A DNA stretch of 64,000 bases from Dehalococcoidia bacterium. GTDB lineage: Bacteria; Chloroflexota; Dehalococcoidia; Lucifugimonadales; UBA3495. Of this stretch, positions 23,085 to 38,253 are shown one piece after another; position 1 is the stretch's first letter, and each line of letters starts with the position of its first letter. The position numbers and the translations under genes were made by a program. Below the pieces are notes generated by a model. It saw nothing but the letters and a program-made list of their open reading frames with translations. It ran no database searches and was not told the DNA's origin. The stretch spans positions 9,218-73,217 of the forward strand of contig DAOUIZ010000037.1 in the NCBI GenBank assembly GCA_034423195.1. Direction: 5' to 3'.

Positions 23085-25211
23085 ATGGCGACCTGGAGTG
23101 ACAGTCAACTCGCCTCGATCCACAAGATGTTGAACCCGGAGTCGGTGGCCATCGTGGGCGCGACGCCCAGGATGCAGTACGGCGGGCGGTTCCTGAATGC
23201 AATGCTCCAGTCGTGCCAGGACCGGGTGAGGATCTATCCGGTCAACCCCAACTACGATGAGATTATGGGGGTCAAGGCCTACCCCAGCGTCAGCGAACTG
23301 CCGGAAGGGCCGGACCTCGTGGGAATCGTCGTCCCCTACAACCGGGTGCTGGACGTGCTGAAGGAGAGCCACGAGAAGGGAGCCAAGTCCGCTGTCATCA
23401 TCTCTGCCGGGTTTTCTGAGCGCGGCGAGGATGACCGGAGCGACCTGCAGGGCGAGCTGAGCCGCTTTGCCCGGGAATCAGGGCTGCGGTGTAGCGGCCC
23501 CAACTGCCTCGGGCTGGCCAACGTGCGCGACAACATCTGGGCCAGCTCCTCCTCCCGCGGGTCCGACGGACTCACCGGCCCGGTGGGCCTCATCTGCCAG
23601 AGCGGGGCCTCCGCCTTCGGCCCCTTCCTGACCCGGGCGGTGGAGGAAGGGATCGGGTTGAGCCACATCATCTCCACCGGCAACGAGGCTGACCTGGACT
23701 TCTGCGACTTCGCCCGCTACCTGCTGGACGACGACGGGGTCAAGGTAATCGCGGGCTTCGTGGAGGGATTCAAGGACGCCCGCAAGTTCACCGAGGTCGC
23801 CAAGCTCGCGGCGGAGCGGGGCAAGCCCATTGTCCTGATTAAGATCGGCAGGTCCGACCTCGGAGCTCGGGCGGCCCGCTCCCACACGGCGGCTCTGACC
23901 GGATCGGATGCAGTATACGACGAGATGTTCGCCCAATACGGCGTCATCCGGGTCCAGGACTACGACGAGCTTCTGGAAGTCTCCCATCTGCTGGCCAACC
24001 TTCCCAGGCCCAGCCAAAAGGGTGTGGCGGTGGTCTCCCACTCCGGAGGCATCAGCTCGCTTACGGCGGACATGTGCGGACAGGCGGGACTGGACCTCCC
24101 CCTGCTGACGGACCGGGCCCGGGACGGAATCAACGGGGTGCTGAAGGGGTTCGGCTGGGCCGCCAATCCATCTGACGTGACCGGTTTCGCCAACAGCGAG
24201 TCCTTCCCCGAGATTATGGACTTCCTGATTTCCGAGCCGACGGTCGGCAACCTGGTGGTCGCCAGCGCGGGAGCGGATGCCCAGGCGGAGCAGGTGATTG
24301 CCCAGCGGGACGCCAGCGACAAGGGAGTGGCGTTTCTCTGGACTGGTACCCGGGGAGCCACGGCGGGGTTGCCCAAACTGAAGGAAGCCGGGATACCCGT
24401 ATTCTACGTGCCGGACAAGCTCGCTATGGGCCTCAAGTCCCTGCTCGACTACCACGAGTGGCTGGAGGGACGGAACGCCAACGGATTCGGCGACGCTCCG
24501 GCGATGAACGGGGACCAGAACGCGGCCGTGGCAAGGGTCACCGGCCTGGGCCGGCCGTCGCTGACGGAGTATGAAGGAAAGCAGCTGATTGCCGAGTGGG
24601 GGATCCCGGTTACCAAAGAGGAAGTTGCCGGATCAGCGGCTGAGGCGGCCGACGCGGCCCAGCGCATCGGGTACCCGGTGGCCCTGAAAGTGAACTCCCC
24701 CGACATCCTGCACAAGACCGAGGCGGGAGGTATCCGGCTGCATCTGAAAAACGGGGCAGAGGTCAGCGACGCCTTCAGCGAGATAATGGAAGGGGCGCGT
24801 CGGTATGACCCCCAGGCCAGGGTTGAAGGCGTCCTGGTCCAGGAGATGGTGAGCGGCGGCGTTGAGGTGATCGCCGGAATCAACTACGACACCCAGCTGG
24901 GGCCGGTGGTGCTCTTTGGTACCGGCGGAGTGATGGTGGAGGTCTACAACGACGTGGCGGTGCGGCACTGCCCCATCACCAGGGCGGAAGCGCTGGAGAT
25001 GGTCCACCAGGTCAAGGGAGTCAGGCTGCTGCAGGGCTTCCGGGGCGCCCCGGAAGCGGACATCGACGCGCTGGCCGACACCCTGCTGCGGGTCTCCCAG
25101 ATGGCCGTCAACCTGGAAGGAAAACTGTCGGAGCTGGACATCAACCCCCTCATGGTGATGCCCAAGGGCGAGGGAGTTAAAGTAGCCGACGCCCTGGCCG
25201 TGCTTCAGTAG
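23085..25211 (+). CDS. Acetate/acyl-CoA ligase (ADP-forming) family, fused CoA-binding and ATP-grasp domains
   Basis: IYPVNP, GPNCLG, STGNEAD, SHTAAL, GYPVALK, HKTEAGG and ELDINPL motifs. Confidence 0.92.
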   Translation: MATWSDSQLASIHKMLNPESVAIVGATPRMQYGGRFLNAMLQSCQDRVRIYPVNPNYDEIMGVKAYPSVSELPEGPDLVGIVVPYNRVLDVLKESHEKGAKSAVIISAGFSERGEDDRSDLQGELSRFARESGLRCSGPNCLGLANVRDNIWASSSSRGSDGLTGPVGLICQSGASAFGPFLTRAVEEGIGLSHIISTGNEADLDFCDFARYLLDDDGVKVIAGFVEGFKDARKFTEVAKLAAERGKPIVLIKIGRSDLGARAARSHTAALTGSDAVYDEMFAQYGVIRVQDYDELLEVSHLLANLPRPSQKGVAVVSHSGGISSLTADMCGQAGLDLPLLTDRARDGINGVLKGFGWAANPSDVTGFANSESFPEIMDFLISEPTVGNLVVASAGADAQAEQVIAQRDASDKGVAFLWTGTRGATAGLPKLKEAGIPVFYVPDKLAMGLKSLLDYHEWLEGRNANGFGDAPAMNGDQNAAVARVTGLGRPSLTEYEGKQLIAEWGIPVTKEEVAGSAAEAADAAQRIGYPVALKVNSPDILHKTEAGGIRLHLKNGAEVSDAFSEIMEGARRYDPQARVEGVLVQEMVSGGVEVIAGINYDTQLGPVVLFGTGGVMVEVYNDVAVRHCPITRAEALEMVHQVKGVRLLQGFRGAPEADIDALADTLLRVSQMAVNLEGKLSELDINPLMVMPKGEGVKVADALAVLQ

Positions 25212-25311
25212 GGAACGCCTCCCAAGGCCAGCCGGACAAAAGGGAGCGCCGGTTGACGGCACGCCCAGGGCAATCGCATAAAGTCCGACTGGAACCTTTG
25301 ACCCCTTTTTC

Positions 25312-25359
25312 CGTCATTCCCGCGCTTTCTCCCGTCATTCCCGCGTAGGCGGGAATCCA
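25312..25359 (+). repeat. Basic CGTC REP (25333-25359) preceded by a truncated half copy
   Basis: CGTCATTCCCGCG-TAG-GCGGGAATCCA; half copy CGTCATTCCCGCG at 25312. Confidence 0.85.
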
Positions 25360-25458
25360 GACCCCCGTCGTGCGCCCCCCGCAGTATCGTGTTGGCCGTT
25401 CATTGGCTGTTTAACCAAACTGGCAAAGCCTCACCCAGCGTGTGTGTCCTGTTCACAT

Positions 25459-25842
25459 TCAGGCCTTGGCTGTCAGGGGCTCCAGCACGTCCAGTAGCTC
25501 CGCCATGCTGGCCAAGTCCTCCCCGATGGTCACCGGGTCCAGGTCGCCGGTCAGCTCGTAGAAGTTTACGTGCAGGATCTCCGCCCGCCCGTGCAGGAAA
25601 GGAAGGCGGTCGTTGCCGCTTAGGCGGCGGGCCTGGTTCATTACCCGGTGGAAGTGGCTGTGCCGTTCGTACTCCCAGCCCTGGACGAGGGCCACGGCCT
25701 TGGCCATGTGGGCGGCCGCTCCCCAGCCCTTCTCGGATGCCTGGTGAAGGTCTCCGTCGGCCAGGTACTGGCCGGCCCTGTCGAGGAACTCGTGCGCCTG
25801 GGCTGTGTGCCTGGCCGCTTCGTTGCTGTTTCCGTTGACCAT
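25459..25842 (-). CDS. PaREP1-family (HEPN-superfamily) protein
   Basis: A..LA.GDLHQASEKGWGAAA and LHVNFYE motifs. Confidence 0.75.
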   Translation of the reverse strand: MVNGNSNEAARHTAQAHEFLDRAGQYLADGDLHQASEKGWGAAAHMAKAVALVQGWEYERHSHFHRVMNQARRLSGNDRLPFLHGRAEILHVNFYELTGDLDPVTIGEDLASMAELLDVLEPLTAKA

Positions 25843-25889
25843 GTCCTTCTCTTATTGGACGCTCTTGGCCTGAATGTCGACCGGCCCTC

Positions 25890-26309
25890 CTAGTCTGTTT
25901 CCTGGAGCACCTCGCCGGAAAGGGCCGTGACCCGCTCGACGTGGACCAGGACTGCGGCTCCGGTGCGCTCCGGGTCCCGGTCAAGCTCGGCCTGCACGGT
26001 GCGGGACATGACATCCTCGCGGACTGGGCCGCTCTCCACGACCTCTGCAGTCCCGTGGAACCGCCAGTTGATGCGGCGTTCCGCGTTCCGGTAGAACACG
26101 ACGACCTGGGGATTGTCGGCCACGTTTTCCATGGCCGAGCGGCGGGCGCGTTCCCAGTAAGCCAGGGTGGTCGGATCATATACCAGGACGCTTCCCTTCA
26201 TGCTTATCTGGGGCCTCCCGTCGCCCGAGGCAGTGCCCACGATGCAGCAGCAGCCGTCGGCCAGGGCCTTGTCCAACAGTTCCTGCATTTCTCCGCTTAT
26301 GTCAATCAA
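25890..26309 (-). CDS. Pyridoxamine 5'-phosphate oxidase-like (split beta-barrel flavin/F420-binding) protein
   Basis: VGTASGDGRPQIS.KGS and N..NPQV motifs. Confidence 0.8.
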   Translation of the reverse strand: MIDISGEMQELLDKALADGCCCIVGTASGDGRPQISMKGSVLVYDPTTLAYWERARRSAMENVADNPQVVVFYRNAERRINWRFHGTAEVVESGPVREDVMSRTVQAELDRDPERTGAAVLVHVERVTALSGEVLQETD

Positions 26310-26419
26310 TATCCCCCCGTATTTCCGTCATTAGCCGACTCTCGGAGCAATTACGCTGGAAAGCGAATCGAGGAGCGGCCATGCGTGACCACCGGCAACG
26401 GTGGCCGGACTGAATATAG

Positions 26420-26425
26420 TATAAT
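26420..26425 (+). promoter_or_regulatory. Consensus -10 box upstream of the CHAT-STAND-TPR gene
   Basis: TATAAT about 180 bp before the start. No clear -35. Confidence 0.35.
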
Positions 26426-26603
26426 GCGCTGGATTTCCCGAAAGCTCTCCAGCGCCCTCGACCGGCCCAAGCCGGGGACCCGGAGGCGCCGGGACAATGC
26501 GTAACAGTTACGAATACCGGCCGATTCTAGACCACCGGTTTCCGGTTGGCAACGACAGCGGCGCCAGTACCGGGGCCAGTCCGGCGTACACCAGGAGCAG
26601 GCA

Positions 26604-29600
26604 GTGTCCCAAGCGATTGAGATTCACGACCTACCCGAATCCGGCCAGCTGCAGGTTGTCTACCGTAAGCCGGACGCCACCCTCGAAGCCCCTCCCTCAG
26701 GATTCTCCAACCCGCTTGAACCATTCGACCACCGGGAACTCGACTGGTATTTCCGCGAGTACGCGGACCAGCCCTTCGGCCCCAGCCAGGCCCGTTCGGA
26801 GGCGGTGGAGACCGGGCTGAGAAACCTGGGACGGGTGCTGTTCGAATCAACGTTCAACGCCAACCCCGAATCGGCCGCCCTCTACGCCCGGGCTTCCCAG
26901 GACGGCCTTGCCGAAACCCGCCTGGAAATTCTTTCCTCCCGTCAGGAGTTCCTGACCCTGCCCTGGGAACTTATGAACGAGACGGAGGCGGGGTATCCGG
27001 CCACGCAGATGTCCGGCATCATCCGTCGCGGGCCAACCGAAGCCGCCGGTGAATTCGACGCGGACTTGCCGGCGGACCAGCTCAACGTCCTGCTCATCGC
27101 CCCCCGACCATCCCTGGAAGACAGCCTCTTCCGGGGAGGCTTGGCCTCCGAGACCGCCGTTGCCCTGGAGGGCCTGGAGGTGCAGGCCGAACTGGAATAC
27201 GTCAGCCCCCCCAGCTTCCAGGGCTTGGCGGATGCCCTGCAGGGCAACCCCCGGTATTACCACGTTGTCCAGCTCGACGGAATCACGGTCGGGGATGAGC
27301 CGGGAACGCTGGTCCTGGAAACCGGCGCGGGACCGGAGAAGGTGGAGACTGCCCAATTGGGCCGGACGCTGGCATCCGCCCAGGTGCCGGTGGCCTTCCT
27401 CACCGGGGCCGGAGACGGGCGCCAGGAATCCTGGGGCACGCTGGCGGGAGTGGCCTCGGACCTAGCCCACCACGGTGTCCCGGTGGTGGTGTGCCTCCCC
27501 TATCCGCTGGCGGACTCGGCCAGCCGGGAAATGTTTGTACGCCGGTTCTACGAGTCCCTGGCTGGCGGGATGGATGTCGCGGCCAGCGCGGCCGGCGCGC
27601 GCAACGCCCTGATGGAGTCGCCGGTGCGGGTGATTCTGTCCGGCAAGCAGGTGATGTGGGACTGGGTTGCGCCGGTCACCTTCCAGTCCCAAGAGTATTC
27701 CCCCCGGGCTATCGAAGGGGAAGAGCCCGACCCGTTGGCCCCGCCGATGCTCCAGCCCCAGCAGCAGGACGTAAACGTGGAGATGCAGCTTCCCGCACCG
27801 GGGGCTTTCGGCCTCCTCGGCAGGCAGGGAGAACTGCACCGGCTGGAGCGAATGTTCACCGAGTCACCCACGGTGACGCTGACCGGCCCCACCGGAGGCG
27901 GCAAGACGGAGCTCTGCCTGGGCCTGGCCCGCTGGTTCCAGAGGCTTGGCAGGAAACAGCGGCCTGGCGGGGTGTTCTACACAACCTTCGAGGCTTCCCA
28001 TCCCTCGGGGCTGGAGCGGATCGTCCATGAAATCGGGACCAGCGTGGCCGGCCTGGAGTTTCCCGATTTGAGCCTCGACCAGCAGCGGCAGTGGGTGGTG
28101 GAGTACCTGCAGCAGCATCCTTCCCTGCTTATCTGGGACAACGTGGAGAACGCGGCGGGTTTTCCGTCAGGATCGCCCGGGCTGCTTGAGCCGGAGGAAC
28201 TGGGCGGGCTGAACGAGTTCATCGCCGGCGTGACCGGTGATGGACAGAGCTGGGTCCTGCTGGCAACGCGCAGGGATGGGGAGGACTGGCTGTCCGTCCC
28301 CCATCAAACCATGACCCTGCCCGGTCTGCAGGGCGGCGACCGCCGGGAACTGGCTGCCGCGATACTTTCCCAGGCCGGCGTTGAGCCGGGCCGGTTGTCC
28401 CCGGAAGTGGTGGATGTCATCGACTTCGTCGAGGGCAACCCCCTGGCAATGAAGATCGTCCTGCCCCGGTTGAAGGACCTGCCCGCCACGGCGCTCCTGG
28501 CCGAACTCCAGCGGACGCTGGAAAGCCTTCCCGAGTCGGCCCAGGAAGAAGGCAGGCCGACGGCTCTCACGGCGGCGATGGAATTTTCCTGGGGAAAGAT
28601 GTCCCGCCGCAGCCGGACCCACCTCCCCTTCCTCGCCCTGTTCCAGCGGCGGGTGATGATGGACATTCTCAACCACATGACCGGCGAGGCCGGGTACAAG
28701 GGAGCAATGGGTGAGGAACTGGGCTGGGGAGCGACCCGCACGCTGCTGCGGACGGGAATGGCCGATGGCTTCCTCGAAGGGGTATCCCCCAGCGTGTACC
28801 AGATTCATCCCGCCTTGCCCTGGTTCTACGGGCGCAAGCTGGGACAGCAGGTGGCAACGGCCCGGCTGGGAGACTTGGAACAGGAGTACGTCCGGGTCTA
28901 CGCGGACACGGCGGACTACTTCATGGAGTCCCTCTACGAAAACCAGGACGCCGGCGTCACGGCTATCCTGGCTGAGGAGGGCAACCTCACCCAGGCCCTG
29001 GGCCTGGCCCTGGAGGCCCGCCATTGGGACAACGCCCAGTTGCTGGTCCAGCCCCTAGCCCAGGTCTACCGGATGCAGAAGCGTTTCGCAGAGCTGCGGC
29101 GCTTGCGGCGGCAGCTGCTGGAAGTCGTCGGCGTCACGGCGGAGGACGCGGCATCCAACGGAGCGGAGGAATTCTGGACCTACCTGCTGGGCACGGAAGC
29201 CAGCGAGTCGGTCGACGTCGGCGATCTGGAGTACGCCGAGGACCTGAACCGCCGGCTGTACGAGTACCTCTCCGGCTTGGAGGGAAGCGACCAGGATCCC
29301 AGGGTGGCGGCGGTATCCCACCAGTTCGGGCAGATTGCCCTCCGCAGGTTCCGGCTGGACGAGGCGGCCGGCTGGTTCGAGCAGTCCCTGGGGATTATCG
29401 AGAACGGGGAGGACCAGGCGTCCGTGGCCGACGATTACTTCGCCTTGGGACAGGTGAAGCAGCATCAGCGCTACTACACCGAGGCCAAGGAGCTGTATCA
29501 GAAAGCCCTGGATATCCACCAGCGCCTCCCAGACGAGGAGGAGATGGTCAAGGACTATCGGGCCTTGGGAGCCGTGTCCCATCTCAGGTTCGAGTACCAG

Positions 29601-30278
29601 GAGGCGGACAGCTGGTACCAGCGGGCGCGGGCCATCGTCGAGGAACAGCGCGACGAGGAAACGGCGGTCCTGATTTTCCATGAGCTGGGGACGGTGTGCC
29701 ACTCCCAGTACCTTTTCGACGAGGCCATCGACTACTACGAGCAGGCATTGAACCTGGCCGACCGCCTTGGAATGGAGGCGCAGATGGCCGTGGAGTTCCA
29801 CTACCTGGGCCTCCTCCAGCAGAACCGGGGCATCATCTACGACGAGGCCGAGGAGTGGTACGTCGCGGCTATGAACCAGTGGGAATTGGTGGGCAACCGC
29901 CGGGCGGTGGGGGATGAGTGCCGCCAGCTTGGAGTCCTGTTCCACGAGCAGAAGCGGTACGAGGACGCCGCCAGGTGGTACCACCAGGCGCGGGAGATTT
30001 TCGAGGAGCTGGGGGACCTGCTCCGCTCGGCCCGCACCTACGGCCAGCTGGGGATGGTGGCCGAGGAGCAGGAGGATATTCCGGGGGCCCTGGAGTGGGT
30101 GGCTAAGACCTACCAGTTGGCGATGGACTACAACCTTCCCATGGTGGTCCAGGTGAAGGCGCACCTGGCCCGTCTGCGGGACAAGATGGGGCTGGACGGC
30201 TTCGAGCAATGGTGGCAGGACTTCACCGGCGAGCCCGCTCCAACGGACTTGGACGTGGATACCAGCACGGTTTTCTAG
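26604..30278 (+). CDS. CHAT (caspase-like, apparently inactive) + STAND/NB-ARC-like NTPase + TPR protein
   Basis: LPWEL, LNVLLIAPRP, PPSF..L, FYESL..G and DW.APV are CHAT-family landmarks. Walker A GPTGGGKT, Walker B LLIWDNVE, GNPLAM, then multiple C-terminal TPRs. Confidence 0.85.
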   Translation: MSQAIEIHDLPESGQLQVVYRKPDATLEAPPSGFSNPLEPFDHRELDWYFREYADQPFGPSQARSEAVETGLRNLGRVLFESTFNANPESAALYARASQDGLAETRLEILSSRQEFLTLPWELMNETEAGYPATQMSGIIRRGPTEAAGEFDADLPADQLNVLLIAPRPSLEDSLFRGGLASETAVALEGLEVQAELEYVSPPSFQGLADALQGNPRYYHVVQLDGITVGDEPGTLVLETGAGPEKVETAQLGRTLASAQVPVAFLTGAGDGRQESWGTLAGVASDLAHHGVPVVVCLPYPLADSASREMFVRRFYESLAGGMDVAASAAGARNALMESPVRVILSGKQVMWDWVAPVTFQSQEYSPRAIEGEEPDPLAPPMLQPQQQDVNVEMQLPAPGAFGLLGRQGELHRLERMFTESPTVTLTGPTGGGKTELCLGLARWFQRLGRKQRPGGVFYTTFEASHPSGLERIVHEIGTSVAGLEFPDLSLDQQRQWVVEYLQQHPSLLIWDNVENAAGFPSGSPGLLEPEELGGLNEFIAGVTGDGQSWVLLATRRDGEDWLSVPHQTMTLPGLQGGDRRELAAAILSQAGVEPGRLSPEVVDVIDFVEGNPLAMKIVLPRLKDLPATALLAELQRTLESLPESAQEEGRPTALTAAMEFSWGKMSRRSRTHLPFLALFQRRVMMDILNHMTGEAGYKGAMGEELGWGATRTLLRTGMADGFLEGVSPSVYQIHPALPWFYGRKLGQQVATARLGDLEQEYVRVYADTADYFMESLYENQDAGVTAILAEEGNLTQALGLALEARHWDNAQLLVQPLAQVYRMQKRFAELRRLRRQLLEVVGVTAEDAASNGAEEFWTYLLGTEASESVDVGDLEYAEDLNRRLYEYLSGLEGSDQDPRVAAVSHQFGQIALRRFRLDEAAGWFEQSLGIIENGEDQASVADDYFALGQVKQHQRYYTEAKELYQKALDIHQRLPDEEEMVKDYRALGAVSHLRFEYQEADSWYQRARAIVEEQRDEETAVLIFHELGTVCHSQYLFDEAIDYYEQALNLADRLGMEAQMAVEFHYLGLLQQNRGIIYDEAEEWYVAAMNQWELVGNRRAVGDECRQLGVLFHEQKRYEDAARWYHQAREIFEELGDLLRSARTYGQLGMVAEEQEDIPGALEWVAKTYQLAMDYNLPMVVQVKAHLARLRDKMGLDGFEQWWQDFTGEPAPTDLDVDTSTVF

Positions 30279-30366
30279 CCCGGTAGCCGGTGCATCCCCA
30301 TTCCAGGGCAGTAATCTGCTATGAGTGAGCTGCCGTCTCAGAGGGCGGCCCCACCGGAGGCAATTC

Positions 30367-32355
30367 ATGGGAGTATCCAGGATAGAAGTCCACAACCGGC
30401 AGCCCTACTGCGACGGTAAGCCCTTCGGTAACGCCGGTCCTTACGAGTTGCTCGAAGGCACGGCGTTCTTCTCCGTGGACCCCGGTCATCCCGACAACAG
30501 CCTGATTGCGGATATCGAGCTGGCGCCGCGAAATGATGCGGGGATGGTCTGTTTTTCAGCGCCCTTGCGCATTTTGCGTCCGGCGGAAACAGGCCGGGGA
30601 TGCCGCACGGTTTTCCTGGACGTGGTGAACCGGGGACGCGGGCGGGCTCTGAAGCTGATTAACGACGCCCCGGATGACGGAGACCCGCTGGACCCTCCCG
30701 ACCCGGGGAACGGGTTCCTGATGCGGCAGGGCTACACGGTGGCCTGGTGCGGCTGGCAGCACGACGTCCCCGGGGTGCCCGGCCTGCTGGGGATAGACGT
30801 TCCCCAGGCGGTGCACGAGGACGGGCCGGTCTCCGGCAGGATGGCCGTGACCTTCCAGCCCTCTGCGGCATCGGACGTACAGATGCTGTCGGAGCGCGGC
30901 CACCGTCCCTATCCAACCAACCACCTGGAGGACTGGGAAGCCACCCTGGCCGTCCGTGATTCCGAGGAAGGGGAGCCACGCTCGCTGCCCCGCGACCAGT
31001 GGCATTTTGCCCATGTCGAGGCTGGACGGCGGGTCCCGGATCCGGCGCACATTCACCTGGAGTCCGGGTTCCAGCCCGGCCGGATCTACGATGTAACCTT
31101 CTCCACCAGCCACGCCCCGGTCGCGGGACTCGGTCTGCTGGCCACCCGGGACTTCATTTCCTTCTTGAGGTACGGTTCCTCGGCGGAAGGCAACCCCTGC
31201 ACTGGGGAAATTGACCTGGCCCTGGGATTCGGCCAGTCCCAGAGCGGACGGTTCCTGAAGCACCTGCTGTACCTTGGGCTGAACCTGGACGAGGGGGGCC
31301 GGAAGGTATTCGACGGGGTCATCGCCCATGTCGCGGGCGCCCGGCGGGGCGAGTTCAACCAGCGGTTTGCCCAACCCTCCACGGCCCACCGCCGCAGCAT
31401 GAGCAACCTGTTCCCCTTCACCGACGCCCCTGAAACCGATGCCGAACTAGGCGCTGCGGAAGGGCTCCTCGACCGCCAGCGGGCCAGGGGCGGCGTGCCC
31501 AGGATTTTCCTGATGAACTCCGCCTCGGAATACTGGTGGGCGCACCTCTCGCTGATCCACACCGACGTCAGCGGCGCCAGGGACATCGAACCGTCTGATG
31601 ATGTCCGCATCTACTACTATGCGGGGACCCAGCACGCCTCCGGGAACTTCCCGCTGGCCGGCGGCGAAGGCCCTGGGGAGACCCGGGGACAGCAGCCCTT
31701 CAACTGGGTCGATTACCGCCCGGTGCTGCGGGCGTCCGTTGCAAACCTCGACGCCTGGGTCCGGTCCGGCATAGCCCCGCCTCCCAGTTGCCACCCCCGC
31801 CTGTCCGACGGAACGCTGGTCACCCCCGATGCGGTGGCCCCTGCCTTCCGCGCCATCCCGGGAGTCAATTTCCCGGTCTACCTGAAGCGGTTTTCGCGCC
31901 TCCATTTCGACCCGGCGGTAAGCTCGGCGGAAAACCTCCCCGCCGGCATCGGCAGCCCCTACCCCCTCCTGGCTCCGGCGGTGGACGCCGACGGAAACGA
32001 GCTGGCCGGAATCAGGCTGCCCGACATTTCCGTGCCCCTCGCCACCAACGCTGGCTGGAACCTCCGGCATCCGTCGGTCGGCGCGGAGGGACAGGTCATT
32101 GGGACCACCGGCGCCACCATCCCCTTTGCCGTGACCCGGGAGGAACGGGAAGCCAGGCAGGACCCCCGCCCATCCATCGAAGAGCGTTACGAGTCCAGGG
32201 ATGCCTATCTGGCCCAGGTCGGGGAAGCCGCCTCCGGCCTGGCTGGCCGGGGTTTCCTCCTTCTTGAGGATTTGGAAACCGTAACCAGGCACGCCGGAGA
32301 ACGGTTTGACGCCCTGACCGCCGGGGCCAGGCAGCCCCAACCGGCGGACAATTAA
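30367..32355 (+). CDS. Alpha/beta-hydrolase-domain protein (paralog 2)
   Basis: Same motifs as 7127-9109: DVVNRG, GFLMRQGYTVAWCGWQ, GQSQSGRFL, YYYAGTQH, GIRLPD. Confidence 0.8.
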   Translation: MGVSRIEVHNRQPYCDGKPFGNAGPYELLEGTAFFSVDPGHPDNSLIADIELAPRNDAGMVCFSAPLRILRPAETGRGCRTVFLDVVNRGRGRALKLINDAPDDGDPLDPPDPGNGFLMRQGYTVAWCGWQHDVPGVPGLLGIDVPQAVHEDGPVSGRMAVTFQPSAASDVQMLSERGHRPYPTNHLEDWEATLAVRDSEEGEPRSLPRDQWHFAHVEAGRRVPDPAHIHLESGFQPGRIYDVTFSTSHAPVAGLGLLATRDFISFLRYGSSAEGNPCTGEIDLALGFGQSQSGRFLKHLLYLGLNLDEGGRKVFDGVIAHVAGARRGEFNQRFAQPSTAHRRSMSNLFPFTDAPETDAELGAAEGLLDRQRARGGVPRIFLMNSASEYWWAHLSLIHTDVSGARDIEPSDDVRIYYYAGTQHASGNFPLAGGEGPGETRGQQPFNWVDYRPVLRASVANLDAWVRSGIAPPPSCHPRLSDGTLVTPDAVAPAFRAIPGVNFPVYLKRFSRLHFDPAVSSAENLPAGIGSPYPLLAPAVDADGNELAGIRLPDISVPLATNAGWNLRHPSVGAEGQVIGTTGATIPFAVTREEREARQDPRPSIEERYESRDAYLAQVGEAASGLAGRGFLLLEDLETVTRHAGERFDALTAGARQPQPADN

Positions 32356-32411
32356 CCGTCGGACTACTACCGGAACCATACCCGCAGACCAGCCGCCGCA
32401 AGGAGAGCGCG

Positions 32412-33254
32412 ATGAACATAGGCACCTCGGTACCCTTGCCCGCTTACACCATAGACCCGGCATTCATGGCCCGGAAGGCCGAGGAGCTGGGTTTCGATTC
32501 CATCTGGTACGCCGAACACCCCATTCTGCCGGTTAACAGTGACAGTCCCTTCCCCAGTGGCGGCCCCATCCCCGAGACCTACGCCCACTTCTCCGACCCC
32601 TACATTTCCCTCGCCCGGGCTTCCTCGGTGACCACCACCATCAAGTTGGCCACCGGAATTACCCTGGTGCCGGAACGCAACCCCCTGGTGCTGGCCAAGG
32701 CCATCGCCACCCTCGACCGTTACAGCGGAGGCCGGTTCATGTTCGGCATCGGAGCTGGCTGGAACCGGGAAGAAACGGAAATCATGGGCGGGGACTTCGA
32801 CCACCGCTGGACCCAGACCCGGGAAGCCGTGGCCGTGCTGAAAGAGCTGTGGACCAAGGACGAAGCCGAGTTCCACGGCCGTTACTACGACTTCCCCCCG
32901 GTCAAGTGCAACCCCAAGCCGGTGCAGGACCCCCATCCGCCCGTAATTCTCGGCGGTATGGCCCGCAACGTCCTGCGGCGCGTTGCCACCTGGGGCGATG
33001 GCTGGATGCCCAACCGCATCAGCCCTGCGGACCTGGAACGGAGCCGCGCTACCCTGGACAACCTGGCGGCGGAGCTTGGCCGGGATCCGGCATCCCTGAC
33101 GATAACCGTCTACGGACAGGACCCCAACCTCGAAGCCCTGCGTTCCCTTTTCGACGCCGGGGCCGACCGGGTGGTGGTCCGCCCCGATTTCGTCGAAACC
33201 GAAGCCGAGATGGGAGAGCAGCTGGAGCGGATCGCGGAAGCGGTCATCCGCTGA
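32412..33254 (+). CDS. LLM-class F420-dependent oxidoreductase
   Basis: AEELGFDSIWYAEH, LAKAIATLD.YSGGR..FGIGAGW, PKPVQ.PHPPV and WGDGWMP motifs. Confidence 0.9.
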   Translation: MNIGTSVPLPAYTIDPAFMARKAEELGFDSIWYAEHPILPVNSDSPFPSGGPIPETYAHFSDPYISLARASSVTTTIKLATGITLVPERNPLVLAKAIATLDRYSGGRFMFGIGAGWNREETEIMGGDFDHRWTQTREAVAVLKELWTKDEAEFHGRYYDFPPVKCNPKPVQDPHPPVILGGMARNVLRRVATWGDGWMPNRISPADLERSRATLDNLAAELGRDPASLTITVYGQDPNLEALRSLFDAGADRVVVRPDFVETEAEMGEQLERIAEAVIR

Positions 33255-33312
33255 TCCCATTGCCTACCCCGTCGCGCCCATCAAGCTGAAGCAACCTGGA
33301 GGACCACGAGGA

Positions 33313-34665
33313 ATGGACCAAACATCACAGCTGCTGAGTTCCTACGCCTGCCGCCTTTCTTACGAAGACCTGAGCCCGGCGACCGTGCATCAGATTAAGA
33401 GAACGGTGGTGGACACCTTCGGGTGCGCCATCGGGGGATACCTGTCGGAGCCGGCCAAGATTGCCCGGCGGTTGGCCGCCGGGGTCAACAGCGTTGCCCC
33501 TTCCCGCATCATCGGCACCGGGGATTACAGCTCGATGGACCTGGCCGGGTTCGCCAACGGCGTGATGGTGCGCTACCTGGACTGCAATGACTCCTACTTT
33601 TCCCCTGGGGGCGGGCATCCCAGCGACATGATCCCCGCGGCCCTGGCCGTGGGAGACACCTTGAGCGCCGACGGGCCGTCGTTGATCACGGCCATCGCCC
33701 TGGCCTACGAGGTATTCTGCCGTATCTCCGACGAGGTGCCCGAATCGGGCTGGGACCAGGGCATCTTCAGCGTCATCGGCGCCGCCTGTGCCGCCGGTAA
33801 GCTCATGGACCTGGACGAGGAGCAGATGGCCCACGCCATTTCCCTCGCGGCGGTCCCCAACATCCCCCTGAGGGTGACCCGCATGGGTGAGCTTTCCATG
33901 TGGAAGGGATGCGCCGCCGCCAGCGCGACCCGGGCTGGCATCTTCGCCGCCCAGTTGGCCGCCGAAGGGATGAACGGCCCCTTCGAGCCCTTCGAGGGGA
34001 GAAAAGGTCTGTGGGAATCGGCCTTGGGCCGCGACATCCGGTTGGACAGGATGGGGGGAGGGGACGAACCCTTCCTCATCACCCAGAACACCTTCAAGTT
34101 CTACCCATCGCAGATTCACACCCAGAATCCCATCGGGCTGGCCATCGACCTCCATTCCCGGGTTGACGTCGCCGACATCGAGTCCATCCATATCAGTAGC
34201 TACCACAGCGCGGTCAGCAGCGCGTCCACCGAGCCGGAGAAGTGGGACCCCAAGACCCGGGAAACCGCCGACCACAGCATACCCTTCCTGGTGGCCGTCG
34301 GGCTGCGGGACGGCGCGGTAACCCCGGCCACCTTCACCCCGGACCGCATCGCCGACCCGTCGCTCCGCCCCATACTGGCCAAGATGACCATCGAAGAGGA
34401 CCCGGCCTTCACGGAAAAATACCCGTCGGAGTACAACTGCCGGATCGAAGTCAGGACCAGGTCCGGGGCGGGTTATGTTGCCTCCGGGCCTTATCCCAAG
34501 GGCCACCGCAACAACCCATTGAGCGACGCCGAGGTCAGCGAGAAATTCCGCCGTCTGGCAACTCCCATGCTCTCCGATGAACAATGCGGCGAGGCCCTGG
34601 GACTGTTGTGGAGCCTGGAGCAGCAGCTCGACATGGACGACGTATTTGATGCGCTGGTAGTATAG
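33313..34665 (+). CDS. MmgE/PrpD family protein
   Basis: RYLDCND, GHPSD, LSMWKG, TADHS and PKGH..NP motifs. Confidence 0.92.
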   Translation: MDQTSQLLSSYACRLSYEDLSPATVHQIKRTVVDTFGCAIGGYLSEPAKIARRLAAGVNSVAPSRIIGTGDYSSMDLAGFANGVMVRYLDCNDSYFSPGGGHPSDMIPAALAVGDTLSADGPSLITAIALAYEVFCRISDEVPESGWDQGIFSVIGAACAAGKLMDLDEEQMAHAISLAAVPNIPLRVTRMGELSMWKGCAAASATRAGIFAAQLAAEGMNGPFEPFEGRKGLWESALGRDIRLDRMGGGDEPFLITQNTFKFYPSQIHTQNPIGLAIDLHSRVDVADIESIHISSYHSAVSSASTEPEKWDPKTRETADHSIPFLVAVGLRDGAVTPATFTPDRIADPSLRPILAKMTIEEDPAFTEKYPSEYNCRIEVRTRSGAGYVASGPYPKGHRNNPLSDAEVSEKFRRLATPMLSDEQCGEALGLLWSLEQQLDMDDVFDALVV

Positions 34666-34841
34666 GAGCCGTTTTCGCCGTAGAATCGGGTCCCGGTGGG
34701 CTTCACCCGCGGGTTTGTGCCTGGGGTTTTCGGGAGGTGGCGTGGTGGCCGGGACGGGGGGAATCCGGGGAATCCGATGCGGTGTCCGGCACGTATTAGG
34801 GGAGACAGGGATCGCTGTCTTCCGGCGCCTGGAGACGGGCG

Positions 34842-35414
34842 GTGGATAGTTACAATGAGCTGGAAGACCTCCAGCTCATCCAAATGACCGCTGGTGGCGA
34901 CGGCCAGGCTCTCGAAGAGCTCTATTCCCGCTACTCGACGGCGGTTTACTCGCTGGCCCGGTATATGTTGCGTAACGAAGCCTCGGCGGAAGACGCCACG
35001 CAGGACATCTTCATCAATATCTGGACCAAATCGGCGAGCTACAAGCCGGAGCGGGGAGCCCCCCGGTCGTGGTTGATGAGCGTGGCCCACAACAAGATTA
35101 TCGACATCATCCGCTCCCAGCGCCGGCACCAGAACCTGGGAGACCAGGGGGATTACGAGACCCTGGACCTTCTTCCGTCCCGGTCCCGGCCCACGGACGA
35201 AGAGGCGGAACTGAACATCGAACGGGAACGCATCATCAAGGCGCTGGACGGCCTGCCCGAGGGCCAAAGGTCGGCGCTTTTCCTGGCCTACTTCGAAGGG
35301 TATTCCCAATCCGAAATCGCGGCCAGGCTGGGCCTTCCCCTGGGAACGGTGAAAACAAGAATGCGGCTGGGAATGCAGAAGTTACGGCTGGAACTGGAGG
35401 CCGATGTCGCCTGA
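34842..35414 (+). CDS. ECF sigma factor (SigK-like)
   Basis: ALEELYSRY, AEDATQDIF..IW, WL..VAHNK.ID, GYSQSEIA..LGLPLGTVKTR. Confidence 0.92.
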   Translation: MDSYNELEDLQLIQMTAGGDGQALEELYSRYSTAVYSLARYMLRNEASAEDATQDIFINIWTKSASYKPERGAPRSWLMSVAHNKIIDIIRSQRRHQNLGDQGDYETLDLLPSRSRPTDEEAELNIERERIIKALDGLPEGQRSALFLAYFEGYSQSEIAARLGLPLGTVKTRMRLGMQKLRLELEADVA

Positions 35415-36348
35415 CATGAGGGGCCATCCCGACGACCTCTTCGAAGCCTACGCGCTGGAAGCGCTGGATGCTTACGAAGCGAATCTGGTCGACCAACACC
35501 TGGAGAGCTGCTCCCGGTGCCAGGTCCTGGCCGGGCGGGCGTTGGAATCGGTAACCCGCCTCGCCATGGCCGTGCAGCAGGCTCCGGCTCCCCCGGGGAT
35601 CCTCGACCGGGTCATGGCCGAGATTAACCCTCCGGCGCTGGAGATGAGTCCGGCCGCGAGCACCCGGGCGCCCCGGTGGCCGGTGCCCGGATGGTCAATG
35701 CCCCGGTTCATGCTGCCTTCCTGGTTCACTCTCCGGGGACTGGCCCTCCCCGCGGCTGCGGTGGTGGTGCTGGCCCTTTTCGGGCTGTCGGTGGCTTTGA
35801 ACCTGAGGCTGGCCGAACAGGTCGATGACATGGCCCAGCGAAACTCAACGGTCACGGCCCAGATGGCCAGCGCGTTGCGGGAAACGGAAAGGTTGCAGCG
35901 GGAAACCTCCGTCATCGCCGCCCAGATGGAAAGCTCCGGCATAGTGTCGCTGGGGAAAATCTCCGATTGGACCGCCACTCTGATTGGCAGCTACCTCGAT
36001 TCCTTCCCGGAAGCCCAACCCGTGATGTTGGAACCGTCGGAAGACCATTCCGGCCACGAAGGGTTCCTGCTGGTTGAGGACGAAGGCAGGAAGGCGACGA
36101 TGATGATTTCCAGCCAGAACCCCGCGTCGGGCAACACGCCGTACCTCGTCTGGCTGGTCCGGGGGACAGACTGGACCCCGGCGGGAGAGGTAATGGTGAA
36201 CGAGTCAGGGCAGGGAACGCTGAACATCGAATCCGGCCAGTCCCTGTTCGAGTTCGACTCGGTGAGCGTTACGATGGAAGGGCAGGAACCGGCCCGCGAC
36301 CAGGTTGTGCTGACCAGCCGGATTCCCCATCAGGCCAACCCCAGGTAG
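35404..36348 (+). CDS. Anti-sigma factor (ZAS domain, TM helix, RskA-like C-terminus)
   Basis: HLESCSRC matches HxxxCxxC. One hydrophobic helix. YLVWL...AG in the C-terminal domain. Overlaps the sigma stop. Confidence 0.85.
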   Translation: MSPDMRGHPDDLFEAYALEALDAYEANLVDQHLESCSRCQVLAGRALESVTRLAMAVQQAPAPPGILDRVMAEINPPALEMSPAASTRAPRWPVPGWSMPRFMLPSWFTLRGLALPAAAVVVLALFGLSVALNLRLAEQVDDMAQRNSTVTAQMASALRETERLQRETSVIAAQMESSGIVSLGKISDWTATLIGSYLDSFPEAQPVMLEPSEDHSGHEGFLLVEDEGRKATMMISSQNPASGNTPYLVWLVRGTDWTPAGEVMVNESGQGTLNIESGQSLFEFDSVSVTMEGQEPARDQVVLTSRIPHQANPR

Positions 36349-36366
36349 GAGACCCGGGCTTCACCG

Positions 36367-36516
36367 ATGACTGCGGAGCCTCGGAAACCGGCACCCGCGC
36401 CCGGCCCGGCCAGTCCCCCGTCGGCTTGCGAAATTTGCGGCGGGCCCACGCTGGAGCTTCACTGCAAGATCCAATGCCGCAACTGCGGCTACACCCGCGA
36501 CTGCTCCGACCCCTAG
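36367..36516 (+). CDS. 49-aa Cys-rich zinc-finger microprotein (not in ORF track)
   Basis: Translated by hand: MTAEPRKPAPAPGPASPPSACEICGGPTLELHCKIQCRNCGYTRDCSDP*. CxxCG...HCK..CxxCG...DCSDP. AGGAG upstream. Confidence 0.75.
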   Translation: MTAEPRKPAPAPGPASPPSACEICGGPTLELHCKIQCRNCGYTRDCSDP

Positions 36517-36611
36517 CGCCGTCGGCGGCCATTCACCGAAAGACTGTCTCGAAGCCGCCTACCCTCTCTCCCGTCACCCCCACGCAAGGCCAGCCCTGCC
36601 GCCTACTCTCC

Positions 36612-36684
36612 CGTCATTCCCGCGCAGAGCCTGCCCCTGGCGACTGAGGAGGGACGACGAAGGAGGGAAAGGGGCGGGAATCCA
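36612..36684 (+). repeat. CGTC REP with 46-bp loop insertion
   Basis: CGTCATTCCCGCGCAG-[AGCCTGCCCC...AAAGGG]-GCGGGAATCCA. Confidence 0.85.
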
Positions 36685-36712
36685 GACCCCCGCAAACCGT
36701 CGCCCCATGCCG

Positions 36713-38167: not shown

Positions 38168-38253
38168 TCATACAATTGTTGATGAACGCCGGGGAAAAAA
38201 ATATAACCTGTCTTGCGGTATTTGAGAGATTTAGCCAGCTCAGGCGTCGGCGG

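Follow-up and report, generated by a model that had tools for sequence, protein, structure and literature searches.

A catalytically dead CHAT domain retained in a conserved STAND-TPR protein of SAR202-type Dehalococcoidia

We describe a gene, called X here, in a 64-kb window (the whole stretch of DNA analysed). Its product joins a CHAT domain that has lost its catalytic dyad to an NB-ARC-type STAND nucleotide-binding and oligomerisation module (NOD) and a TPR solenoid. The dead domain is under purifying selection in a discrete group of orthologs whose gene neighbourhood is constant. We favour, with a probability only a little above one half (roughly 0.55), the reading that X is a domesticated, vertically inherited STAND switch in which the pseudo-CHAT domain has an assembly role that needs no catalysis.

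Results

Architecture of X

The X ORF begins with a GTG codon, 7-11 nt downstream of an AGGAG Shine-Dalgarno sequence that is kept in orthologs, and encodes 1224 aa (Table 1). Pfam matches are to AAA_22, to TPR_12 (6e-27, in five stretches) and, marginally, to CHAT, and the AF2 model of the full-length protein has a pLDDT of 88.8 and a pTM of 0.75. No DNA-binding or enzymatic output domain was found in X by the Pfam/NCBIfam domain search. A previous sequence-only reading had proposed a CHAT-STAND-TPR architecture with an intact NTPase. Domain search, motifs and Foldseek bear this out, and all the motifs it quoted are found where it had placed them (Table 1).

Table 1. Features of gene X and its surroundings (coordinates of the window)
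Feature	Position	Strand	Residues	Basis or occurrence
X, whole gene: CHAT (dead) + NB-ARC-type STAND NOD + TPR	26604..30278	+		ORF, Shine-Dalgarno, AF2, 78 orthologs
Pseudo-CHAT: N-terminal beta/helical subdomain + caspase-hemoglobinase core	26604..27713	+	1-370	Pfam, phmmer, Foldseek
LPWELMN motif, N-terminal subdomain of pseudo-CHAT	26958-26978	+
Former catalytic-His motif YHVVQLDGIT	27258-27287	+	219-228	Alignment
Former catalytic-Cys motif VAFLTGAGD	27390-27416	+	263-271	Alignment
Linker CHAT to NTPase, disordered	27729..27785	+	376-394	pLDDT <50
STAND NOD module (NBD, helical domain, winged helix)	27801..28853	+	400-750	Motifs, Foldseek
Walker A, GPTGGGKT	27885-27908	+	428-435
Walker B, LLIWDNVE	28125-28148	+	508-515
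Sensor-1-type motif, LLATRR	28257-28274	+
GxP motif of helical domain, EGNPLAM	28431-28451	+
Winged helix, YQIHPALP	28797-28820	+
TPR-like alpha-solenoid	28857..30188	+	752-1195	Pfam TPR_12/TPR_2/TPR_10/TPR_MalT, model helices
TPP-dependent enzyme, upstream of X	21321-23039	+		61/80 loci
ADP-forming acyl-CoA synthetase, upstream of X	23085-25211	+		60/80 loci
PNPOx-like FMN-binding protein, divergent upstream neighbour	25890..26309	-		Pfam, synteny
Abhydrolase_10 hydrolase, 46 bp 3' of X	30325..32355	+		Pfam, synteny
Luciferase-like monooxygenase	32412-33254	+		Pfam, synteny; 56 loci
MmgE/PrpD-family protein	33313-34665	+		Pfam, synteny; 72 loci
ECF sigma factor with own AATCC-N16-CGTA promoter (34771-34795), region	34771..36348	+		Pfam, motif
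RskA-type anti-sigma	35404-36348	+		Pfam

The N-terminal domain is a CHAT domain without an active site

The Pfam CHAT model (PF12770; peptidase clan CD) matches X partially, at 25.9 bits for a cutoff of 24, and only over profile positions 162-284, so that the match begins past the His site. An exhaustive phmmer search with aa1-419 gave 3592 matches with E<=1e-3, of which 38 have E<=1e-30, and E-values against dyad-bearing CHAT proteins go down to 1e-43. The homology of the N-terminal domain to CHAT is solid despite the marginal Pfam score. The pseudo-CHAT domain reaches a pLDDT of ~90 in the deep-alignment model. Foldseek of the AF2 models assigns it a caspase-hemoglobinase fold, with matches to SAVED-CHAT (8tl0), the Craspase TPR-CHAT (8d9f/7y8t), DdvA (8rw5), separase (5fc2) and caspases.

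To fix the catalytic register, 136 sequences, of which 113 are dyad-bearing, were aligned with MAFFT. Those 113 read YHxVHFDGHG ... VLNAC[QR]S ... GVxxVVAMxY, the same motifs that the earlier reading had given for active members. X carries Ile227 (27282-27284) in the His column, Thr228 in the Gly column and Ala269 (27408-27410) in the column of the family Cys. This last column is that of DdvA C907, the catalytic Cys of that protein (PMC11506125), since the family profile aligns 'vvLnaCqsg' with DdvA 'VVLAACEGG'. X has neither the GHG His nor the NAC Cys of an active CHAT protease, and the proposal of a dead caspase-like domain stands in an alignment anchored on C907. That proposal would have failed had another His or Cys occupied the active site; none does. 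Cys297 (in 'VVVC'), which had been named as a candidate, lies off-site, aligned with the Ala of VVAMxY, and is unconserved, a Cys being present only in the closest relatives of the window protein.

The loss is not limited to the dyad. Of 63 positions that are at least 80% conserved in the 113 dyad-bearing relatives, 34 have been released in the X clade, including Arg168, Glu51, Asp174, N267, S271 and A297/M298/Y300, and 29 are kept. Arg168 is found in 100% of the dyad-bearing relatives and in only 10% of X-clade members, and the loop of ~20-30 aa that most of these relatives have past 'HG' is missing from the clade. X thus departs from the family at the other elements of the active-site region as well (Arg168, N267, S271, the VVAMxY strand and the post-His loop). 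The family-wide motifs PWE, R141, HxxH-DG, R333, R342, DW and P357 are retained. The dyad, the post-His loop and some half of the remaining positions conserved in the family were lost in the ancestor of the clade, and because of these losses the CHAT domain of X cannot be a cysteine protease.

It is extremely unlikely that the domain is instead a hydrolase acting through non-canonical residues, for example His220/His223 with another nucleophile. His220 is present in 36 and His223 in 28 of 38 orthologs, but dyad-bearing relatives conserve both columns at least as well, and neither is the site of their GHG histidine; the window protein itself has Gln223. Position 269 is G, A, S, P, T, R or N across orthologs, with no conserved Cys, Ser or Thr at or near it. 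Comparison of the X clade with the dyad-bearing alignment revealed no clade-specific conserved polar residue in aa219-370, and nothing in the CHAT domain varies more than the loops around these sites.

The STAND module and the TPR solenoid

Both Walker motifs are present in 78/78 intact orthologs, and X also has the sensor-1-type Arg, the GxP motif and the winged-helix His of STAND NTPases, this MHD-like His735 being kept in 31 of 38 orthologs. Neither the Pfam NB-ARC (PF00931) nor the NACHT model matches X, the only matches being AAA_22, AAA_25 and AAA_16, and a profile search against PDB sequences returned only generic P-loop matches and a weak ADR1 match. We take the NTPase to be a divergent STAND lineage.

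In Foldseek, the top match of the NOD and TPR part is 6mfv_A, a STAND-TPR protein (E 4e-15). The NOD itself has an NBD-HD-WHD fold and matches Apaf-1 (3sfz/1z6t, E about 1e-8), while the solenoid matches the TPRs of LGN/Pins and OGT. The PH0952-type archaeal STAND (6mfv) and the NOD of Apaf-1 (3sfz, 1z6t) are hence the best structural counterparts of this half of X, although their sequence similarity to it is below the reach of the profile search against PDB sequences and their N-terminal modules are different (CARD in Apaf-1, a dead CHAT in X). Because X places a helical-repeat sensor after NBD-HD-WHD, the ADP/ATP switch and oligomerisation logic of 6mfv and Apaf-1 is implied. From its motifs the nucleotide switch appears intact, and conservation is very strong in the half formed by the winged helix and the TPRs.

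The MalT and SARP-AfsR STAND activators are non-immune NTPases that regulate genes of catabolism or secondary metabolism and have a TPR-like sensor. The similarity of X to them is weak (TPR_MalT, 40 bits; AfsR, 35.8 bits for a cutoff of 1430, in the TPRs only). We rejected X as a MalT/LAL/SARP regulator, as it has no Pfam or NCBIfam match to a LuxR-type HTH or OmpR/SARP domain and falls far short of the family cut-offs.

X is a vertically inherited ortholog group under purifying selection

Our ortholog sample consists of 80 loci from species-representative Dehalococcoidia/SAR202 genomes, both marine and sponge-associated. One intact full-length X ORF is found in 78 of them, ~1225-1300 codons long, and the dyad is missing in every one of these 78. 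Mean pairwise identity among orthologs is 0.71 for the helical region, 0.66 for the TPR and 0.42 for the CHAT domain. The corresponding dN/dS values are 0.0-0.11 and 0.03-0.17 for the first two, 0.05-0.15 for the NTPase and 0.10-0.35 (about 0.2) for the CHAT core. The dead CHAT fold and its family-wide structural motifs are under purifying selection.

These data effectively refute the view that X, or its CHAT domain alone, is a pseudogene in the making. It is true that the CHAT domain evolves faster than the remainder of X, that the ORF is split in 2/80 loci (L014, L067) and that some database entries have frameshift-like tails (P0001, P0002). However, 78/80 orthologs are intact despite only ~50-58% identity to the window protein, the dN/dS of the CHAT core is far below 1, and the 29 family-wide positions are retained. 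The sequence-only reading would likewise have fallen if this were an eroding copy among active homologs; every clade relative, however, is dead as well and still under purifying selection.

The clade is monophyletic and the gap that separates it from dyad-bearing paralogs is sharp (at least 50% versus at most 29% identity). X is a discrete, vertically inherited ortholog group, restricted among the sequences scanned to SAR202-type Dehalococcoidia (Chloroflexota). The dyad-bearing CHAT/STAND/TPR proteins have the same three-part architecture, at 25-29% identity over up to 98% coverage. They share with X motifs of the CHAT domain (LPWEL, YHxVHxDG, R333, R342, DW, P357) and of the NTPase (GK[TS], LLxWDN, GxPLA, YQIHPALP). 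In contrast to the X clade they possess the GHG + NAC dyad, Arg168 and mostly a post-His loop of 20-30 aa. Furthermore, the sole dyad-bearing relative whose context was seen (P0258) adjoins a DDE transposase, whereas X is syntenic and vertically inherited. X probably has its origin in active proteins that combined a CHAT protease with an NB-ARC-type STAND module and TPRs.

A conserved gene neighbourhood

X had been described as a single gene with no substrate or effector neighbour. This framing is not supported, as X sits among metabolic genes in a strongly conserved order that is fixed across ~80 related loci: TPP enzyme, acyl-CoA synthetase, PNPOx, X, (hydrolase, monooxygenase), PrpD, ECF sigma, anti-sigma. 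A PNPOx-like homolog is found in the flanks of 62/80 loci, upstream of X in most, and the Abhydrolase_10 hydrolase in 58/80, directly 3' of X in most. The cargo beside X varies, being a hydrolase, a monooxygenase or a CitE-like protein. Neighbouring enzymes are 62-77% identical between related genomes, and since this divergence is only moderate, synteny may partly reflect phylogenetic inertia rather than functional coupling.

The ECF sigma gene (69/80 loci) and RskA (45/80) lie on the strand of X, 2.4-7 kb downstream of it. We consider it quite improbable that X is a cytoplasmic regulator of this pair, binding for instance the sigma factor or the cytoplasmic domain of the anti-sigma. Besides this proximity, the idea draws on DdvA (8rot/8rw5), the TPR-CHAT anti-sigma factor of Myxococcus xanthus. 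The CHAT domain of DdvA is among the top fold matches to that of X. Of the CHAT domains with a solved structure, the sequence profile reached this one alone, whence the Cys register, and DdvA employs it in signalling next to an ECF sigma (PMC11506125). However, DdvA retains its dyad (H862/C907), works in the periplasm anchored to the membrane and has no NTPase (PMC11506125). Moreover, an AATCC-N15-18-CGTA motif, the conserved promoter of the sigma gene, precedes that gene in 65/70 loci but never X or any other cluster gene (0/81), so that X and the sigma factor are separate transcription units; promoter sharing, the single explicit test of coupling, thus came out negative. RskA is also poorly conserved (median identity 29.5%) in comparison with the highly conserved TPR of X, unlike co-evolving partners, and adjacency may simply reflect inherited gene order.

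The neighbourhood bears too on a possible role in immunity. In PADLOC, X gave only a generic TPR match, with mad8 at 0.0025 and SAVED_CHAT at 0.0032, and no system-level match; for its neighbours the sole match was a generic oxidoreductase one. The surroundings of X hold no genes of defence or mobile elements, and neither the 64-kb window nor the 80 flanking regions of ~21 kb contain a second CHAT homolog. X hence shows none of the marks of an anti-phage STAND, namely a system match, a defence-island or mobile context, a patchy distribution and an active effector.

Discussion

The earlier suggestion of an immune-type receptor is not sustained by our results: X is a vertical ortholog, intact in 78/80 loci, with a conserved sensor half, a fixed gene order and no PADLOC defence match. 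A related possibility is that X works in trans, as an NLR-like sensor, a decoy or a regulator resembling cFLIP, together with a catalytically active protease of the CHAT-STAND or caspase-like kind whose gene lies at another place in the genome; heteromers of live and dead CHAT domains would then modulate cell death or defence. Its dyad-bearing family members do share their architecture with STANDs of defence and cell death (PMC13581612), a dominant-negative or decoy role has been proposed for inactive caspase effectors of bacterial conflict systems (PMC7159879), and the pseudo-CHAT retains family-wide surface and core motifs. Against it, no second CHAT homolog lies in the regions surveyed, conservation within X is highest, not lowest, in the sensor half (dN/dS 0.0-0.17), and the chromosomal position is fixed, away from defence and mobile genes and without a system-level match. 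We therefore regard it as unlikely.

Dead caspases have precedents in bacteria. In vWA-MoxR ternary conflict systems, inactive caspase effector domains have been proposed to bind peptides or to act as dominant-negative regulators (Kaur et al. 2020, PMC7159879). As in X, these are bacterial caspase-superfamily domains that have lost catalysis and are retained in systems built around an NTPase, but they are fused to vWA components of multi-gene, diversifying systems (PMC7159879). X, on the other hand, combines the dead domain and a STAND NTPase in one polypeptide, is conserved rather than diversifying and has no MoxR or vWA neighbours. Bacterial pseudo-orthocaspases are dead caspase homologs conserved across lineages and presumed to have non-proteolytic housekeeping roles; they have a C14 p20 domain, not CHAT, and no STAND fusion, and their His and Cys are replaced by Tyr and Ser (PMC6426788). 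The replacements in X are variable aliphatic residues and Gly/Ala. We rejected X as a pseudo-orthocaspase on both counts, the domain type and these replacements.

Because X is intact, under purifying selection and in a constant neighbourhood, it has the appearance of a domesticated regulatory switch of the cell, not of an antiviral sensor; non-defence STAND clades are known to be interspersed among defence clades (PMC13581612). In the domesticated switch that we favour, the TPR solenoid would bind an endogenous ligand that is itself conserved, a peptide or a segment of a protein being the likeliest candidate. Binding would relieve autoinhibition, so that ATP could replace ADP and the NOD could oligomerise in the manner of Apaf-1 and PH0952-type STANDs, and the clustered pseudo-CHAT domains would then form a non-catalytic platform for assembly or recruitment. 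The release of active-site constraint argues against peptide binding in the old catalytic groove, which leaves an assembly platform as the default role. Of the 'scaffold, decoy or adaptor' roles once put forward, scaffold or adaptor is still the best guess for the dead domain, and decoy is less likely since the whole active-site apparatus (34/63 positions, including Arg168) has been released.

X may be tied to the organic-acid/acyl-CoA catabolic island in which it is always embedded. A more specific version, which we hold to be distinctly unlikely, is that X is an NLR-type STAND ATPase domesticated for metabolic signalling, whose conserved TPR would sense an endogenous protein or a metabolite-bound partner and whose dead CHAT domain, on oligomerisation driven by ATP, would form a non-catalytic platform controlling the flexible island around it. 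If this were true, an 'apoptosome-like' machine would have been repurposed, with a pseudo-protease output, in a globally abundant marine lineage.

The N-terminal domain is a CHAT domain that has lost its catalytic dyad

The CHAT-STAND-TPR gene is a single open reading frame with a GTG start, preceded at 7-11 nt by an AGGAG Shine-Dalgarno sequence that is also present in its orthologs, and all the motifs quoted for it in the sequence-only reading were found where that reading had placed them (see table). Pfam returned strong TPR matches, AAA_22 and a marginal CHAT match (25.9 bits for a cutoff of 24) that spans profile positions 162-284 only and hence starts past the His site, and PADLOC and NCBIfam searches of the protein gave no specific match. 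To set the register we compared aa1-419 exhaustively with 1.84 billion cluster representatives using phmmer, which yielded 3592 relatives at E<=1e-3, and aligned the protein with 135 of the best matches. The pattern YHxVHFDGHG ... VLNAC[QR]S ... GVxxVVAMxY, which is the active-CHAT consensus that the earlier reading had given, was found in 113 of the 136 aligned sequences. Where these dyad-bearing relatives have His-Gly our protein has Ile227-Thr228, where they have the Cys it has Ala269, and the loop of 20-30 residues that follows 'HG' in most of them is absent.

A profile that includes the dyad-bearing relatives pairs 'vvLnaCqsg' with 'VVLAACEGG' of DdvA, the TPR-CHAT anti-sigma factor of Myxococcus xanthus (PDB 8rot, residue 898 onward). 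The catalytic cysteine of DdvA is C907 (PMC11506125); it falls in the Cys column of the family, which ties the register to a characterised CHAT protein. In searches of PDB sequences DdvA and SAVED-CHAT were reached only by this profile, and the CHAT region and the dead-clade profile gave no CHAT match. A first AF2 model, built from 5 sequences (pLDDT 63), matched SAVED-CHAT, Craspase, DdvA, separase and caspases in Foldseek, and a second, built from 42 sequences, reached a pLDDT of 88.8 (about 90 in the CHAT domain) and a pTM of 0.75; both predictions support a CHAT fold for the N-terminus. By descent, this is a CHAT-family domain but not a CHAT protease, since the dyad that defines one is missing in a register set by 113 relatives and by DdvA C907, and the caspase-like domain is dead, as had been proposed from the sequence.

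Other residues were considered for the lost function. Cys297, the 'VVVC' cysteine that the sequence-only reading had named as a possible active-site residue, is off-register: it shares a column with the Ala of VVAMxY, and only the window's closest relatives also have a Cys there. His220 and His223 are common to the whole family and neither is the catalytic His, and a search of aa219-370 for a conserved polar residue specific to the clade found none. It is therefore highly improbable that the protein is a cryptic hydrolase, and it cannot act as a Cys protease. Position 223 (27270-27272) is a Gln in the window, as in the nearest relatives; since all dyad-bearing relatives and 28 of 38 sampled orthologs have a His there, drift has gone one step further in this sub-lineage.

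The loss extends beyond the dyad. The 113 dyad-bearing relatives have 63 positions that are at least 80% conserved; in 79 members of the clade, 29 of these are kept (among them P120-W121-E122, R141, R201-P202, H220, H223, D225-G226, Y316, R333, R342, D353-W354 and P357) and 34 are released (among them H227, G228, C269, Arg168, Glu51, Asp174, N267, S271 and A297/M298/Y300). Arg168, for example, is found in 100% of the dyad-bearing relatives versus 10% of the clade. The alignment thus indicates that the whole catalytic apparatus has been abandoned, with the fold and the family-wide structural motifs retained.

Coordinates of the features of the CHAT-STAND-TPR gene and its surroundings (nt unless marked aa)
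Feature	Position	Strand	Remark
CHAT-STAND-TPR gene	26604-30278	+	GTG start, 1224 aa
YHVVQLDGIT	27258-27287 (aa219-228)	+	former His motif
VAFLTGAGD	27390-27416 (aa263-271)	+	former Cys motif
Walker A GPTGGGKT	27885-27908	+	
Walker B LLIWDNVE	28125-28148	+	
CHAT domain	aa1-370		second AF2 model
Disordered linker	aa376-394		second AF2 model
P-loop NBD	about aa400-575		second AF2 model
Helical domain	aa578-640		second AF2 model
Winged helix	aa653-750		second AF2 model
TPR-like solenoid, continuous	aa752-1195		second AF2 model
TPP-dependent enzyme	21321-23039	+	neighbour
ADP-forming acyl-CoA synthetase (ACS)	23085-25211	+	neighbour
PaREP1	25459-25842	-	neighbour; PaREP1/PaREP8 family, Pfam 3e-12
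PNPOx	25890-26309	-	neighbour
Abhydrolase_10	30325-32355	+	46 bp 3' of the gene
Luciferase-like monooxygenase (LLM)	32412-33254	+	neighbour
MmgE/PrpD	33313-34665	+	neighbour
AATCC-N15-18-CGTA	34771-34795	+	directly 5' of ECF sigma gene
ECF sigma	34800-35411	+	neighbour
RskA anti-sigma	35404-36348	+	neighbour
ThyX	36713-38167	-	neighbour
TPP-dependent paralog	16880-18568	-	
TPP-dependent paralog	39095-40732	-	
HpcH/HpaI triplet, locus L048	6807-9790	-	related locus
HpcH/HpaI triplet, locus L058	6630-9573	-	related locus

The loss is ancestral and maintained under purifying selection

A scan of one genome per GTDB species with motifs of the clade confirmed 113 loci. We kept 80 of them; all come from Dehalococcoidia, SAR202 or Chloroflexota MAGs, many of sponge and deep-ocean origin. 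With open reading frames called by homology, the ortholog is one intact frame of about 1225-1300 codons aligning to aa1-1224 in 78 of the 80 loci. In the other two (L014, 9935-13670; L067, 9938-13550) it is split into two frames, and some database entries (P0001, 674 aa; P0002, 460 aa) have ends that look frameshifted; such cases may be genuine pseudogenes, or indels introduced by error when MAGs were assembled from long reads. Both catalytic residues are missing in all 78 intact orthologs, with no consistent substitute at the His position (I/V/L/A/M/F and others) or at the Cys position (G/A/S/T and others). Simple pairwise Nei-Gojobori estimates for 14 close pairs gave dN/dS values of 0.10-0.35 for the CHAT core, 0.05-0.15 for the NTPase, 0.00-0.11 for the helical region and 0.03-0.17 for the TPR. 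The loss of the dyad is hence conserved under purifying selection across relatives, on which the pseudo-protease interpretation had been made to depend. Intact orthologs and dN/dS values that are low in all regions rule out a decaying copy, and leave the idea of a relic a negligible probability.

In a neighbour-joining tree the 15 dead sequences nearest the window form a monophyletic clade without any dyad-bearing member. In the indexed protein database more than 100 clusters are at least 50% identical to the protein, every one of them named 'tetratricopeptide repeat protein', and below this group similarity falls abruptly to 27-28%, where outgroups P0258-P0260 carry the full dyad together with NTPase motifs of the same type. 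A dead clade with dyad-bearing outgroups means that the dyad was lost once, in an ancestor, and that the loss has been maintained. Elsewhere in the CHAT-STAND superfamily both residues have been lost independently in P0063, P0092 and P0098, and a single one in P0053, P0080, P0116, P0152 and P0154, so that outside the clade 8 of 121 representatives show full or partial loss and pseudo-CHAT STANDs arise repeatedly.

Several individual observations accompany these data. The gene list around P0258 includes a DDE transposase. One MAG (JADFQT01, B80T1B5) holds two orthologs of distinct subgroups (L016 and L025), through a rare duplication or because the bin is mixed. An ortholog deposited as Geodia barretti, a sponge host (P0256), probably reflects contamination by a symbiont, and one deposited as a Stenotrophomonas MAG (P0254) was probably mis-binned. 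Long frames run antisense to the gene, among them 28167-29024 (-) and 29055-30395 (-, 446 aa), and likewise antisense to its neighbours; their simplest cause is the 65% G+C, and they are unlikely to be genes. Conservation and the dN/dS pattern fit the + strand frame. A literature search found nothing specific on this protein in SAR202.

The nucleotide switch is intact and the putative sensor is the most conserved part

Walker A and Walker B are kept in 78 of 78 orthologs, in agreement with the intact NTPase seen in the sequence alone. In Foldseek the top match was 6mfv (E 4e-15), a STAND from an archaeon whose sensor is a TPR, followed by Apaf-1 for the nucleotide-binding, helical and winged-helix unit (NOD) and by peptide-binding TPRs of the LGN/Pins type for the C-terminus. 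The motifs LLATRR, EGNPLAM (GxP) and YQIHPALP, with an MHD-like His in 31 of 38 orthologs, are compatible with a switch of the NB-ARC/AP-ATPase type. Pfam found no NB-ARC or NACHT match in the protein, and the NOD profile reached only generic P-loop matches and a weak ADR1 in the PDB; we class the NTPase as an NB-ARC-like STAND of a divergent kind, with its nucleotide switch motifs intact.

Mean pairwise identity over 79 clade sequences is 0.44 for the N-terminus, 0.42 for the CHAT core, 0.56 for the NTPase, 0.71 for the helical region (aa641-880) and 0.66 for the TPR. The putative sensor is therefore the most conserved part, the reverse of what is expected of an arms-race receptor. This bears on the possibility that the protein is an immune decoy or sensor partnered with an active CHAT protein elsewhere in the genome. 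In either the window or any of the 80 loci, tblastn with six CHAT queries recovered no second CHAT/STAND partner, and defence models (PADLOC) run on the gene and 10 neighbours were negative save for one generic oxidoreductase match. We consider such a decoy or sensor doubtful.

The gene has a fixed position and lies outside the local sigma regulon

The gene had been described as a single gene without substrate or effector neighbours, a picture that its surroundings do not bear out: the order TPP+, ACS+, PNPOx-, the gene, (Abhydrolase_10+), (LLM+), PrpD+, ECF+, RskA+, ThyX- is shared by nearly all 80 loci. Homologs were counted for TPP in 61 loci, ACS in 60, PNPOx in 62, Abhydrolase_10 in 58, LLM in 56, PrpD in 72, ECF in 69 and RskA in 45; with some contigs cut short, all of these are minimum counts. 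The cargo beside the gene changes, with Abhydrolase_10 and LLM variably present, and the gene persists. Since identity to the window's enzymes is 62-77% for the neighbours of the gene, these genomes are only moderately divergent, and the synteny may partly be inherited order rather than functional coupling.

A large subgroup, generally L039-L080, carries three tandem HpcH/HpaI (CitE-like) aldolase/lyase genes between PNPOx and the gene. Outside the window, PaREP1 lies between ACS and PNPOx in the closest relatives alone (L001, L003), and in a different place in L070; it was thus inserted recently into a gene order that is fixed in other respects. The ThyX frame (484 aa, two Thy1 stretches) is about twice the length expected and may have arisen by tandem duplication or fusion. 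Three TPP-dependent paralogs lie inside 24 kb, about 25-30% identical to each other's orthologs, and only the one at 21321-23039 is tightly syntenic with the gene.

The adjoining sigma/anti-sigma pair raises the question of whether the protein regulates it. In DdvA a CHAT domain serves ECF signalling, but with its dyad intact, whereas here the dyad is lost. A bipartite motif, AATCC-N15-18-CGTA, derived from 70 ECF upstream regions, occurs within 350 nt upstream of the ECF gene in 65 of them; it was matched 101 times overall, versus about 30 times in shuffles. It is absent upstream of our gene (0/81) and before Abhydrolase_10, LLM, PrpD, ACS and TPP. This excludes coupling via a shared promoter and indicates that the pair is a separate, autoregulated unit, with the gene outside the local regulon. 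Nothing supports a post-translational link, and RskA is poorly conserved (29.5% median identity) whereas the TPR is highly conserved; regulation of the pair is quite unlikely. The window's motif ends 5 nt before the listed ECF start, so that the true start is probably farther downstream or the mRNA is leaderless. A second window match, at 8357, lies within open reading frames and is at chance level. A scan of 25000-38500 for sigma-70 promoters and intrinsic terminators gave nothing above shuffle expectation.

A pseudo-protease STAND with a probable cellular role

Purifying selection acts on the dead domain, and most of all on the sensor, of an ortholog that is inherited vertically and in synteny. 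Homology with Apaf-1 and PH0952-type STANDs suggests how the protein might work: a ligand that is endogenous and conserved would dock on the solenoid, lift autoinhibition and allow exchange of ADP for ATP. As the TPR is LGN-like, this ligand is probably a peptide or a segment of a protein. The ATP-bound NOD would then oligomerise and bring the N-terminal pseudo-CHAT domains together. As the protein has no enzymatic or DNA-binding output domain, its output would have to run through protein-protein contacts, with the protein either serving as a platform for assembly or recruitment or sequestering the ligand itself. A substrate-like peptide is less likely to bind in the old catalytic groove, because the active-site constraints have been released. 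We hold it very probable that this is a conserved pseudo-protease STAND, lean towards a role that is cellular and not antiviral, and are less confident of any particular output; to the combined statement we give a probability of roughly 55%.

Dead caspase-superfamily domains in bacterial NTPase-centred systems have already been described. In vWA-MoxR ternary systems about 70% of the caspase effector domains are inactive, and a role as peptide binders or dominant negatives has been proposed for them (PMC7159879). Cyanobacteria have conserved pseudo-orthocaspases (PMC6426788), and non-defence STAND clades are intermixed with defence clades (PMC13581612). What is new is the combination of a dead CHAT domain joined directly to a live STAND-TPR chassis, its fixation in synteny as a core-like gene in a major marine lineage, and a sensor that is better conserved than the one-time effector.

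The protein is tractable for the study of an enzyme-less STAND oligomer, with a model of good confidence and well-defined K434, dyad-restoration and TPR mutants. The usual interpretation of CHAT/caspase-STAND proteins is that they are effectors of cell death or antiviral effectors, and the present case cautions against automatic defence annotation of CHAT-STAND-TPR genes. SAR202 is an uncultured lineage, important in marine carbon cycling and sponge symbiosis. In this clade the chassis has long outlived the protease and its chromosomal position is fixed. It would be a clear example from nature of how an NLR-like protein shifts from conflict to housekeeping, and of a pseudo-protease kept for a non-catalytic role.
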